Positions 26,042 through 53,960 of a DNA stretch of 64,000 nt are shown one piece after another; positions within the stretch are counted from its first letter, which is position 1, and every line of letters begins with the position of its first letter. The DNA comes from Eledone cirrhosa (lineage: Eukaryota). The position numbers were made by a program, and so were the translations under genes. Location of the stretch: NCBI GenBank assembly GCA_964016885.1, contig OZ024742.1:157232001-157296000 (forward strand), given 5' to 3'. Below the pieces are notes generated by a model. That model was given only the letters and a program-made list of their open reading frames with translations, was not told the DNA's origin and did no database searches.

Positions 26042-26088
26042 TGCTTACAATTGTTTCCTCCAAACCGAGGTTTGGATTCTTCGGAGCA
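26042..26088 (-). ncRNA. Type I hammerhead ribozyme, CCGAAGA core variant
   Basis: tgct-CCGAAGA-a tccaaacc tc ggtttgga g-GAAA-caattgt-A-agca, followed by AATAAA and then (TA)n. Confidence 0.7.
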
Positions 26089-26154
26089 GTTATTTATAAC
26101 ATACTTGACCTCCTTTTCATTTATATATATATATATATATATATATATATATGA

Positions 26155-27760
26155 CCCTGTTGAAGAAGGTTTTGGACTTACTCCGCCGTCAATGATCTAG
26201 ATAGGGGGATCATTGAACATTGCAGGAAAACCTCTCCTCTTCAACAATGGAGTAGCGTGGTCAAAGAATTCAACTATTTCAGAACTATTCGACGTACGAA
26301 AGTGATCATTCGATAGTGCTGATACAGGCGAATTGGTTGGCTTATTTGTTTTAGATACGTTACGTACTAGATCTCTGGACTTCCTCACGGGCTTATACCC
26401 TGACAATAGTCTGACACGCGCGAACCATAAAAGTGTTCACGACCTGGACCGTTTTTTTTTTAAATTACTATTTTTAATGAGTAAGGACTTACGATAATAA
26501 TAGCTACCAACCTCACTGTCATAGATTATTTAGGCATAAATGTAGATCTTCACACACACACACACCTTTAGACACTTCCATAAACTAAATGAAAACTAAA
26601 TTACATACAAAAGTCCTCACGCCATCCTCTAATAACTTTTAGAAACTTCGTGAAAAATATCGGCACTAGAATCTCTACCCTCTCCTCTAATAAAGCAATA
26701 TTTGACGGAGCGGCTCCCTACTACAACACGGCGTTAGATAACAACAACTTGTCACAACCAATTGCTTACTCTCCTACTAAGGTCAACGAAAATAAGAAAA
26801 TAAATCGTGCTAATAGAAAATAATTTTGTTCCACGCCCCCTTCTCAATCAACGTAAAAACTAATATAGGCAAAATATGTTTAGCTCACGTAGATAGTCAC
26901 TTACTCATAGGTCACACATACCGTTCCATCTTTAACAGACACAGGGTGAAACTAGGATAATCATGTGCTAAGAATATGAAGGGCCACATCACCAACAGCC
27001 CTAAGAGCAATACCCCACAAGGAGGATCTTGCCAAAGGCTGGAAGCATGTCCCTTTCAACAACAATGTAACACACCCGCTGTAATTTACGATACTGTGGT
27101 TACCACTAATAGACCAAATCAACAACAAGAGGTTAAATCGTATGTAGGTATGGTGGAGTGCAGGTTTACGGAAAGCTTCCTGAATGATTTGTCGACCTTC
27201 AGATATCCGCACAAATGATTGTCCAGGAAGATCGCAAGCCACGTATGTTCCCTCAAGGACACAGGCATGGATTACTCCATCCAATGGTAGGTTATTACTG
27301 GATCTAAGCCATACGGAGGTGGGAATACGTATTGTAGGTTGTGCATTGAAGAAAGAATCAATATCATGAAAAGTTTAAGTAAAAGCGGTTGTCTAATTTC
27401 AAAGAATGCACTTTTTCGCGTTGTCCACACGTCTGGAAATATTTCTTACATAATTACAAAGCTTCACATTGACTAATGTGTATAATTTATAATTATTCCA
27501 AGCATCCACAGTTATGTCTCTACATAGATCTATCGTTGGTTTACCTCCCCTTTGTGAGGGGGCTGTTTCTGCACAAGCGTATTCGTACGGTTGTTTTTCC
27601 TTTTCCCAACAATCTTATCTAAACCGAGCTGATGATCCAACGAAGGTGAAACAATTGTTCTCGGTAATGGTAAACTAACTGTTGTAGAACTACTGATACC
27701 AAACTCGTCCCACGGAATGAGTGCTCTTCTACTACGGATATAACCCACCAGCGTTCTACC
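26155..27760 (+). mobile_element. Decayed Penelope-like element (RT C-half, GIY-YIG, 3' UTR with HHR)
   Basis: Translated remnants SFDSADTGELVGLFVL, IGTRISTLSSNKAIFDGAAPYYNTAL, HTYRSIFNRH, CQRLEACPFQQQCNTPAVIY..SYVG and CRLCIEERI. Confidence 0.8.
27623..27665 (+). ncRNA. Type I hammerhead ribozyme in the PLE 3' UTR
   Basis: accgag-CTGATGA-tccaacgaaggt-GAAA-caattgt-T-ctcggt. Perfect 6-bp stem I, palindromic ACAATTGT stem III. Confidence 0.85.
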
Positions 27761-27908
27761 ATTACATATATATATATATATATATATATATATATATATA
27801 TATATATATATATATATATATGTAGAAGGTGAGTTTTATTGTAGTACAATAAAGCAATGCAGATATCGGATAAGAAGCACTCTACAGTTTGTAGGACTGG
27901 AGTATACA

Positions 27909-50371: not shown

Positions 50372-50466
50372 GTCTAACAATTGTTTCTATGATAGAGTTG
50401 TCTAAAAATTGCTAACATTGCCACTCAATTTAAAATACATGATATCTACAACATTTCGTCAGAGAC
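50372..50466 (-). ncRNA. Type I hammerhead with a long stem II insert
   Basis: gtct-CTGACGA-aatgttgtaga..[about 68 nt in total]..tctatcata-GAAA-caattgt-T-agac, then AATAAA, then (TA)n. Confidence 0.6.
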
Positions 50467-52009
50467 TGAGAGAAAATAAAGAAATACATGCGTAACGGTA
50501 AATTTATAGATTCAAATTACCACAGCAATAATAATATTAATAATAAAGATATAGAGAGAAAGAAAGGAAGGGAGACAGATGGAAAGGAGGGGGGGGGGAC
50601 GAAAGAGAAAAAGAAAATCCAAATATATGCTTAACCGGCAAAATTACGAATTCAAACTATTACATCAAAATAATATTAATAATAAAGATACCAATAGAAA
50701 GAAAAGAGGGGGATAAATGTAGTAAAGGTAGAGAAGAGAAGAAAAAGAAGGATGAAGAAGGAAAACGAGAAAGAGACAGAGAAAGATGAAGAAGGAAATG
50801 GAGAAAAGAAATACAGGTAGAGAAGGAAGAAGACTGGGAAGTTATTACATCTGAAAATACGCAAGCATAGACATCATGTGAAAGATAGAAGAGTTAAGAC
50901 GTGCGACCGGATGAGTAATTGTTGATAAATACAGGCAGAAATAGGATGGCGAGAATAAGGAATATGAACAGACAGACGAATATACGTTAATGCAAGAATG
51001 AAAGCAAGTAAAAATAGAGAGTTAGGCATATAAACAAATGAACAAATAAATAAATAAAAAGATAAATAAATAAATAGATGGATGAGTAAATAAATAAATT
51101 ACATTTATTGTTATATATAATGGTATAATATTTGAAACGTAGAGATGTGAATAAATAAATAAATAAATGCGTTGAAGAGACTAATAATAGTAATATTAAT
51201 GTTATTAATGTTATTGCGAATAGTTATTAATGAATTATTAAATATGGATAGATGTTAAGTTGAAAATATTATAATATCGGATGTATTTATGTGTGTATTG
51301 GATATTTTAATAAGTAAATTAACTAGTTTAAGATGTATTATATGATAAGATAAAATGATCGAGATGAAATAGGTTTAACTAGAGAAATGCAAAGACAAAT
51401 TGTGAAAGATAGAGGTGTATGAAATAAGAATGTAAAAACAAAAGGTTCGGATGGTGTCCTTTCGTAATTATAATGGTGACAATGCTGCTGATAATGTGCT
51501 ATGGTAGTAGATTCTAATGGTATAAAAGGGATAAGGAATAGAAAATGGAATTAAGTTGGTCTAAAGATCTAGAATTTCTACGTAAAGTACTTGTTGATTC
51601 ACACAACGCCGTACGTCAAAAGTTTGACAAGCGCACCTCAGCGTGAAAGGTCGTTCTAAAAACGAAACAATACCTCCTACGTTAACCAAGAACTCCTAAG
51701 ACCTAACTTAATTTATAAAATATTTTTTTTTAAGAAAAAAAAAAAAAATTTTTTTTCTAATCCGGAAAAAAATTATTTTTGGATTTTGTGAAGAAAATAA
51801 ATTTGTTGAAATCACAAGTGAAGCCATTTTTTCTTCCCCCAGTCTTAATATACTTAACTGTACCAAGGATTACACACATTTTTCAATATATATATATATA
51901 TATATATATATATATATATATAGGACCGGAAATAGCCGTCGAGACAGCTTGAGCTCGGCGGTCGGGGTCTTTAACATTTTCCTATATATATTTATATATA
52001 TATATAGAG

Positions 52010-53960
52010 AGAGAATTCAAAAGAATCAAAGTTATGTTAAAAGCATTTATTCACTTACAATTGTTTCATCCAAACCTAGGCTTGGGATCTTCGGACCATT
52101 TTTCAATGTTTGTACACATAATTGACCTCCTTTCCAACGCAAGAGACATACATATACATATATATATATATTGATGTAGATTGGAGTGACATATATTATA
52201 TTATACTATGTTTGTACAGCAATTCAAATTCAAAATCAAAATTAAAATCAAAATTAAAATACATTCGGCAGATAACACAGATAATGCAAGAGGATAGTTT
52301 GATAGTTAGATCTAGTAGGTAGTGTATGCGTCAGTTACACATGGAGCATGCAAGTGTGTCTCATTTTTATACTATTATTGTGTGGCAGGGTGTTACACGT
52401 TATGCAAGCACTTTAAGCGGGTAAGCAAGATTATTATCGTGGCTGTAGTGGTAAGGTATTTTTTTGTATAGAACAAAAAAGTATGTGTGCAGAAATAAAA
52501 ATAAAAAGAAGAAGCAAAAGAAAGTTATTATTTTTGTATACACCACCATTTTCACATTCAGAAAAAGTAAGAAATAGTTTCAACATCCATCACATAAGTA
52601 ACGATGATTCTGTATTAAATGTTTGATGCATTAAAATAAATTATTTTAGCGTATTGAGGCTCAGTGTTATTTAATCCAAGTTTATAGAATAGGTTGATTC
52701 TGCTGCGAGAATTTACAGCGGTTTATTACCCGGAAATATGTGTGTAATTAAGTGGAGTTAATGCGTAAGGGGAGGTACCTAGCCGAATCTCATAATTAAT
52801 TTCATTGTTCTAACAAACATTATAAGGCGCCTATATTGACTCCCTTATATAGACGGTTATATCTAGTTTCCAATTTTAAATACAGTCTACTCTATCATGA
52901 TGTACTAAAGGTATCTATATTAAGTTGATTACTCCCTATTATATAGTCCTACAATTGAATATTCCATACAAAGTGCCATATCTTTATATCAACGTTCACT
53001 GTAAATGCAGTCTACTCTCAGAATATATCAGGGGACCTATTAGAATTTTGTCTACATAACCCCTGGCAAGTTATGGAGCAGCGTATGGCTGTTTGCATGG
53101 CAAAACAAAATAGATCTCTAGGGAAGGCAAATACATCCCTCATTTACAATGTCATTAATCTATCCATCAAGTTATACTTGCATATATAATTCATACATAA
53201 TTCATTGCAGCTCCCTACATATAAGTTAGTCAGATCTCTTATGTTATTAAATTAATCTTATATATATCCAATGTTATCACTCCATACATTTAATTACAAA
53301 TGCATAAATAATTAATTGCCGTATCTAGTATTTAAAGTTTATATAGACTGTGTATTATATAATTATAAGTAATTGAAAGTAGTTATATTAAAGGTAGGTG
53401 TTTATGGGGATATTTCTAGGGTATACAGTTATAGATAGATGGAATGATTTGTGTCGAAATAGGGTGGACCAAAGAGTGTGGAGTTGTGGTGTAAGGTGTG
53501 CCCTTGAGGTATGGTGTTACAAGTGGTGATGGGGTCAAGTCCGACATTGTTATATATTGGGTTTAAAGTTTTGGAAGTGTGCCGGAAGCGGTGCTGTCAC
53601 GATGCAAACACTTCCGGTTTTTTATTGAGGAGGTTATGGTTTGAGAAGATTATAGTATATGTCTCTAGTAGACAGAGGTTACAGAATGTATTAGGTGGTT
53701 TGTACGATGCCGCCTTACCTATCACTTCCCATTGAAGTGTATAAGATCTATTTTTAGTATTTAGATAGTGTATGTAGCTAGATAGTGAAGTGGAGTTGGC
53801 TAGACTGTGTTTTTTGAAAGAATGGAGGTGTGAATTGTATCTGGTTTTGAAGCACTTCGAAGTAGAGCCTTTATAGGTTTCAGAAGAGTGCATGAGTATA
53901 TGATGTCCTTGATTAAGCAGTTTTTATCTAACGGGCGGGTTCTATTAGATCTACAGTTAT
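52010..53960 (-). mobile_element. 5'-truncated Penelope-like element: GIY-YIG end, long 3' UTR, terminal HHR
   Basis: ORF 53597-53893 reads YKGSTSKCFKTRYNSHLHSF..STSLSSYI..CNLCLLE..LLNKKPE. The HHR at 52051-52100 is on the same strand. Confidence 0.75.
52051..52100 (-). ncRNA. Type I hammerhead, CCGAAGA variant (related to 26042)
   Basis: aatggt-CCGAAGA-tcccaagcc ta ggtttggat-GAAA-caattgt-A-agtgaataaa. Stem I is decayed. Confidence 0.6.

Follow-up and report, generated by a model that had tools for sequence, protein, structure and literature searches.

A window of 64,000 nt from the genome of Eledone cirrhosa (assembly GCA_964016885.1, contig OZ024742.1, positions 157,232,001 to 157,296,000, numbered here from 1) carries five hammerhead ribozymes that share one palindromic stem III, ACAATTGT. 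Judged from sequence, they represent 3' ends, each with its hammerhead, that truncated copies of four high-copy, Hydra-like families of Penelope-like elements (PLEs) have left behind. The shared palindrome is probably the default stem III of such ends, and each hammerhead would cut as a double hammerhead together with the second copy of its own element. The motifs are an ordinary, well-populated case of the dimer-type motif already described.

Host elements of the five hammerheads

The five hammerheads are labeled A to E along the window (Table 1). They had been predicted to share a stem III reading GAAACAATTGT(A/T), and this is the case: the 12-mer GAAACAATTGTW occurs at exactly five sites in the window, and shuffled sequences hold it 0.05 times on average and never more than once. 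Every site has a CYGANGA core upstream of GAAACAATTGTW and a stem II that can fold, along with GAAA, ACAATTGT and the UH site. Compared with the type I consensus (CUGANGA, GAAA, UH), the core is canonical in B and D, while A, C and E carry the U4C variant CCGAAGA, which is constant in 28 of 28 C contexts. The hammerhead assignments rest on a type I descriptor of our own, requiring at least three helix I pairs and two helix II pairs. It reports 14 hammerheads in the window; A to D pass, and E fails with a single helix I pair. On these sequence features the five are type I hammerheads, the E copy being decayed, and self-cleavage is predicted at the sites in Table 1. An Rfam scan of the window returned 95 matches at E<=1, none of them a hammerhead and all of them microRNA-type matches driven by microsatellites; Rfam may lack models for forms with a minimal helix III. 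A search for expression in one run presumed to be RNA gave nothing beyond short, low-complexity matches. We also notice AATAAA or ATTAAA 4–9 nt 3' of the predicted cut in A, C, D and E, which could be a polyadenylation signal that cleavage removes.

The flanks had been described as unrelated except for those at 26042 and 52051. A and E indeed align at 75% over 179 nt, but C and D are related as well (72.5% over 102 nt, E 1.8e-10; 59.5% identity over 447 aa between the family proteins), so that the five motifs form three lineages (A/E, B and C/D) and not four. The proteins of A and of C or D share 35–38% identity in the main aligned blocks. Grouping A with B was rejected, as the link was merely a common TC microsatellite. 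A mixed-palindrome tandem (39090, 39606 and 40128, with a spacing of about 520 nt) was also rejected, C being unrelated to the ACTAATTAGT units.

Full-length copies of family A, found among loci elsewhere in the 3.0 Gb genome (L-prefixed labels), contain an open reading frame of 830 aa with RWR, DKT, YRDD, CxCx5C, YIG, CxxC..E and N..CxH motifs. In its reverse transcriptase (RT), RWR is at 41 and DKT at 126, a stretch that lies outside the B, C and D fragments examined. The CxCx5C linker and the C-terminal GIY-YIG endonuclease, with CxxC and CxH flanking E and N, were recognized by motif in A and C and by alignment in D and in the decayed B. Other C copies have a Hydra-type endonuclease 0.7–0.9 kb upstream of the hammerhead; other D copies have one 1.1–1.4 kb upstream, 52–59% identical to that of C. 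We propose the 'Hydra' assignment from motifs that match the published clade definition (PMC8557442, section 11). Pfam recognized none of the A, C and L124 proteins, and three of the nine queries had any match.

Each full-length family A element holds two 99% identical pseudo-long terminal repeats (pLTRs) with a hammerhead in each, 4,324–4,706 nt apart in all four copies compared. This arrangement was seen for family A, the only one of the four from which full-length copies were obtained. The family A unit of 4.3–4.7 kb, with a 3' untranslated region (UTR) of 1.5–1.9 kb, exceeds the published length of the Hydra clade, which is generally under 3 kb (a typical rather than strict value; PMC8557442).

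All five hammerhead ends lie 41–107 nt before a microsatellite (a TA or TC run), which fits a preference for (TA)n insertion. Given the coding remnants upstream in all four families and the ends near microsatellites, we regard the motifs as solo 3' ends of truncated insertions rather than non-autonomous tandem RNAs. The suggestion that non-autonomous RNAs pair here with a PLE partner is not borne out, as all five motifs come from families that encode RT and endonuclease, and the tandem arrays in the window use other stems III. Each of the five also stands alone in the window and belongs to a family with RT and endonuclease remnants, which separates it from non-LTR retrozymes, defined by a non-coding head-to-tail array.

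Table 1. Positions in the window of the five hammerheads and of the elements that carry them
Feature	Position	Strand	Description
Hammerhead A	26042..26088	-	core at 26084, CCGAAGA (U4C); helix I UGCU/AGCA; stem II region 20 nt; stem III ACAAUUGU; GAAACAATTGTW at 26046-26057; predicted cut after GUA at 26046
Hammerhead B	27623..27665	+	core at 27629, CUGAUGA; helix I ACCGAG/CUCGGU; stem II region 12 nt; stem III ACAAUUGU; GAAACAATTGTW at 27648-27659; predicted cut after GUU at 27659
Hammerhead C	38996..39108	+	core at 39002, CCGAAGA; helix I CAUGCU/AGCUAUG (3 bp, bulge, 3 bp); stem II region 81 nt; stem III ACAAUUGU; GAAACAATTGTW at 39090-39101; predicted cut at 39101
Hammerhead D	50372..50466	-	core at 50462, CUGACGA; helix I GUCU/AGAC; stem II region 68 nt (family mostly 78 nt); stem III ACAAUUGU; GAAACAATTGTW at 50376-50387; predicted cut at 50376
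Hammerhead E (A/E family)	52052..52098	-	core at 52094, CCGAAGA; helix I broken (1 pair); stem II region 20 nt; stem III ACAAUUGU; GAAACAATTGTW at 52056-52067; predicted inactive
Short 3' pLTR remnant, family A	25997..26152	-	between TA microsatellites; 97.6% over 123 nt to full-length copy L237
Decayed 5'-truncated PLE, family B	26204..27766	+	RT fragments 26204-26452 and 26593-26820; GIY-YIG endonuclease remnant 27042-27416; 3' UTR; (TA)n end
3' UTR/pLTR remnant, family C	38663..39163	+	96.8% identity to L247
3' UTR remnant, family D	50296..51578	-	82.5% identity to L248
5'-truncated PLE, A/E family	52012..53959	-	endonuclease remnant about 53476-53959; 1.5 kb 3' UTR; 81% identity to L107

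Stem III and helix I between two copies

A genome-wide search for the core, 8–26 nt and GAAACAATTGTH gave 14,173 matches, and the reversed-pattern control gave 5. When any AC-NNNN-GT stem III was allowed with a short stem II, 23,898 matches were found (control 1,572), which makes ACAATTGT the commonest 8-nt stem III of the genome (14,173/23,898, 59%). Stems III of 6 nt are commoner still, with 62,710 matches (control 4,985). The total for the long-stem-II pattern (25,567) was not used, since many of its matches are RT coding sequence of the long interspersed element type. The AC-NNNN-GT form allows 16 palindromes only, of which AATT would account for about 10% by base composition; a share so far above this value needs descent or selection. 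Meanwhile, the palindrome centre drifts within one family, taking the forms AATT, AGTT, AGCT and GATT, and one family A stem II sequence was found with AATT, AGTT and AGCT alike.

The original prediction called for setting palindrome identity against PLE phylogeny. This could be done in part, with an endonuclease tree of 19 sequences, all from this genome, in which 4 of the 16 inner branches are well supported. ACAATTGT occurs in four lineages (A/E, C/D, B and L250) interleaved with lineages that bear other stems III, and 40 upstream regions examined for other palindromes yielded few endonuclease links. We consider ACAATTGT the likely conserved default stem III of the clade in this genome, ancestral retention being the simplest reading.

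The variants of the palindrome bear on whether two RNA copies pair. In a palindromic motif that decays by strand-symmetric changes in DNA, GATT and AATC should be equally frequent, and so should AGTT and AACT. Genome-wide, however, GATT was counted 1,745 times against 133 for its mismatch mirror AATC, and AGTT 1,302 times against 174 for AACT. The G·U-compatible variants belong to expanded subfamilies, whereas the A·C mirrors are mostly scattered over all families. This excess fits selection for RNA pairing across the palindrome centre, which a monomer loop would not need, and it agrees with the premise that the motifs are PLE-associated hammerheads of the dimer type.

Nearest-neighbor energies were calculated for both arrangements. 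The monomer hammerhead fold gains 0–4 kcal/mol over stem II alone; for intact A, E and C copies this gain does not exceed 0.3 kcal/mol. The corresponding figure for homodimers formed by intact copies is 11–19 kcal/mol. Set against their own best monomer ensembles, the clearly favorable homodimers are those of A and E only. The bare palindrome duplex has -6.4 kcal/mol, with a dissociation constant (Kd) of about 31 uM. One RNA per 500 fL corresponds to about 3 pM, so that pairing in trans is disfavored.

In a type I hammerhead, the helix I 5' arm is followed by the core, stem II, GAAA, stem III, the UH site and the helix I 3' arm. With standard numbering, this topology implies that once two palindromes have paired, 15.1 of one copy (X) is matched to 16.1 of the other (Y). 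Because H17 and 1.1 covalently follow 16.1, helix I must then join the 5' arm of X to the 3' arm of Y. Between copies of different families, B forms 0/0 bp of helix I with A, C, D or E, D forms 2/2 with A or C, and A forms 3/4 with C, leaving one compatible family pair out of six (A/E with C). When intact copies were cofolded without constraints, every heteropair involving B or D had a cross helix I probability of 0.00–0.01; A:C and C:E reached 0.83 in one direction, and homopairs 0.26–0.99. Among 12 ACAATTGT representatives with distinct stem II or helix I, hand-picked from oversampled ACAATTGT loci and in some cases related, cross-copy helix I attains 3 bp both ways in 5 of the 66 pairs and at least one way in 14. 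Of the same-strand neighbors in the window, E and D (1.6 kb apart) form 2/1 bp, and B and C (11.4 kb) 0/0 bp.

Most cross-family pairs are therefore predicted to lack an active site, as the second stem, helix I, must match too; by these models, cross-family activation would be possible for A/E with C alone among these families. The palindrome had been proposed to act by itself as a compatibility code. Our findings do not support this idea: cross-copy helix I is needed and is available to one of six pairs, 59% of the 8-nt stems III are the default 8-mer, and the palindrome changes within one family. The helix I requirement sharpens the 'palindrome code' into definite expectations, A with C predicted active and A with B predicted inactive. 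Targeted literature searches returned no paper on cross-family hammerhead dimers; Lunse et al. and Arkhipova et al. 2017 may already treat cross-pairing, so the helix I point may not be new.

We infer the following course of events for an intact source element. It would be transcribed through both pLTRs, giving a read-through RNA that holds the 5' and the 3' hammerhead. The two palindromes would pair into an 8-bp helix III, and each core would be shared, with nucleotides 3-15 coming from one copy and 16-17-1.1 supplied by its partner, so that helix I also forms between the copies. Cutting by the double hammerhead would then release a unit-length RNA. Protein help is probable for its folding in view of the low activities reported (PMC4209133). 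Partner specificity would come from helix III plus helix I, and mostly from position on the same transcript. The solo copies in the window are likely inert, having no compatible neighbor on the same strand.

Several observations weigh against processing by two copies of one element, or against the default status of its stem III. The excess of each wobble variant comes mainly from a single expanded subfamily, which leaves few independent events. Of the first 100 AGTT matches, about 11 by our count are from a family whose actual stem III measures 16 nt. The homodimers of B, C and D are not clearly favored over their monomer ensembles (-1.1 to +12.6 kcal/mol). A partner 4.3 kb away corresponds to an effective concentration of about 0.8 uM in a crude ideal-coil estimate, below the Kd of 31 uM, and on these figures even pairing in cis may depend on helpers. 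The U4C change of A/E and of three C-type positions is reported to lower activity in vitro (PMC3088659). Helix I compatibility is somewhat commoner between representatives with the same stem III (8 of 72 pairs) than between those that differ in it (13 of 363; 30 representatives; permutation p 0.035, relatedness not controlled), a result that favors the proposed palindrome code. Concerning ancestry, the same families partly make up the 59% base rate, identity to the A endonuclease is no higher than 27–44% in B, C, D and the L250 family, and with the weakly supported backbone of the endonuclease tree, ACAATTGT may be either ancestral or convergent.

Alternative readings

The hammerheads may instead cleave as monomers, with a 2-bp stem III closed by an AAUU tetraloop and aided by proteins or, in C and D, by the long stem II; the shared sequence would then be a conserved protein-recognition or structural word. 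The monomer folds of B and D are slightly favorable (-0.7 to -3.9 kcal/mol over stem II alone), and the same 8-mer is retained across 27–44% protein identity. In File S2 of PMC8557442, the published Hydra hammerheads mostly have stems III of 3–4 bp with loops of 1–3 nt, and the form of stem III varies in the clade. On the other hand, the expanded variants (AGCT, AGTT, GATT and GATC) keep central pairing, which a monomer loop would not need, while the mismatch mirrors look like scattered decay. A fixed protein word would not tolerate these changes. We regard monomer cleavage as unlikely for these families.

A second possibility is a two-part compatibility, in which stem III and helix I both match, as in A/E with C, and hetero double hammerheads are selected, either in trans or on chimeric read-through RNA. 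A and C have common helix I arms, core CCGAAGA and stem III despite 35% endonuclease identity, and D, the closer relative of C, differs from C in helix I and core. Cofolding of A:C and C:E gives cross helix III a probability of 0.98–0.99 alongside the one cross helix I noted above, and the slight excess of compatibility among same-palindrome pairs points the same way. A precedent exists in the HIV-1 dimerization initiation site (DIS), where discordant palindromes cut co-packaging 2.3-fold (PMC3605237). Under such a code, the AATT-AGTT-AGCT series in family A would be an ongoing code switch via a G·U bridge. However, common ancestry accounts for the A/C match equally well, and L125:7028 is a copy with a 20-nt stem II and a C-like helix I. 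The fully formed A:C double hammerhead lies only -1.8 to +0.1 kcal/mol from the monomer ensembles, trans cutting would have to proceed at about 3 pM although the Kd is tens of uM, and A and C are on opposite strands in the window. Such selection appears improbable to us, and we equally doubt that A/E and C, with proteins about 35% identical, kept matching two-part codes so that their RNAs process each other. If cross-family cleavage were real, it would let one retrotransposon family process or sabotage the RNAs of another with no protein involved.

It is hardly credible that the palindrome alone suffices and any two ACAAUUGU RNAs activate each other, for example through an AAUU loop-loop kiss with intramolecular cores: an 8-bp duplex is possible between any two families (cofold probability 0.87–0.99 for A:B, B:D and B:E) and AATT pairs more weakly with AGCT (-2.2 vs -6.4 kcal/mol), but those three duplexes have a cross helix I probability of 0.00 and hence no complete core, a four-pair A-U kiss between tetraloops on 2-bp stems is unlikely, AGTT pairs with AATT and AGCT alike, which makes the code leaky, and at least 12 representatives have the same word, so that it separates little.

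Known systems and neighboring elements

The palindromic helix III and the dimer dependence of PLE hammerheads have been published (Cervera and De la Pena 2014, PMC4209133; Lunse et al., as cited in the reviews PMC6765202 and PMC6466107; PMC3088659, figure S8 legend). The minimal, palindromic-helix-III hammerheads known from metazoan pLTRs resemble those described here in being type I, with a short helix I, an extra nucleotide at the stem II base and a palindromic helix III, as well as in their pLTR location, mostly solo truncated copies, inverted pairs and dimer model. The present motifs differ from them in an 8-nt palindrome common to many families, in the U4C core of A/E and C, and in the stem II regions of C and D, which measure 68–81 nt. 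The parts of these papers covered here do not take up pairing between families or the need for a matching helix I. For the dimer model, published with weak activity, the G·U excess over mismatch mirrors offers a genome-sequence test of two-copy pairing.

Hydra elements with hammerheads and (TA)n targets are likewise known (Craig et al. 2021, PMC8557442). This clade of PLEs with a C-terminal endonuclease shares DKT, RW(K/R), the CxCx5C linker, the C-terminal GIY-YIG and CxxC/CxH beside E and N with the families here, together with a canonical hammerhead near the 3' end and (TA)n insertion. ACAATTGT is in none of the Hydra hammerheads listed in File S2 of that paper, most of which have stems III of 9–10 nt with an unpaired centre.

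Non-LTR retrozymes (PMC7229834; bioRxiv 10.64898/2026.07.22.740005) also have type I hammerheads that cleave better as dimers; an origin from PLE pLTRs and the use of PLE proteins have been proposed for them. A retrozyme is a non-coding tandem array, in contrast to the five motifs, which are solo ends of coding PLE families. The HIV-1 DIS is alike in that a short palindrome biases the pairing of retroelement RNA, and unlike in being a GC-rich kissing loop for packaging, outside any catalytic core and with no need for a second matching helix (PMC3605237).

Other hammerheads surround the five. Among the further stem III palindromes reported for the window, ACGCGT and ACTAATTAGT are present, but ACATTAATGT is absent, its two nearest sites reading ACATTAGTGT; ACTAGT occurs as well. 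ACGCGT hammerheads lie in a retrozyme-like 310-nt tandem array with an inverted 5' copy (14581-15663), and arrays with the same motif are found on contig 1. The ACTAATTAGT hammerheads, with a stem II of about 50 nt, belong to 557-nt tandem units in two inverted blocks (43114-46245 and 39572-40202), to which a further family is 70% related; no coding partner was identified for these units. A 438-nt repeat family (37743-38498 and 48937-49288) has the stem III ACATTAGTGT, an imperfect palindrome, or a decayed form of it.

A further Hydra-type lineage has its endonuclease at 47156-47482 and its hammerhead at 48030-48110 (+), with other copies at L005:1790-1900 (-) and L096:465 (+). Its core is the U3-A8 variant, and its stem III, which is not a palindrome, is stable (4 bp, 11-nt loop), so that it may cut as a monomer; the window copy is decayed. 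Another Hydra-type lineage (L114, L145 and L254) has a conserved, hammerhead-like 3' motif about 100 nt before a TA run, with an altered core and no AC..GT stem III; our descriptor does not pick it up. The family of L158:422, L172:1062 and L108:1644 is of monomer type: its stem II has 12 nt, and its stem III is a hairpin of 16 nt (4 bp and an 8-nt loop).

Toward the end of the window there are RT remnants at 60779-61564 and 62757-63839: one from another type of PLE, which matches Pfam RVT_1, and one from the A/E family that has an inverted 5' piece. The minus strand at 272-10451 carries two decayed copies of non-LTR retrotransposons, identified by eye from zinc-knuckle, endonuclease and RT-like frames.

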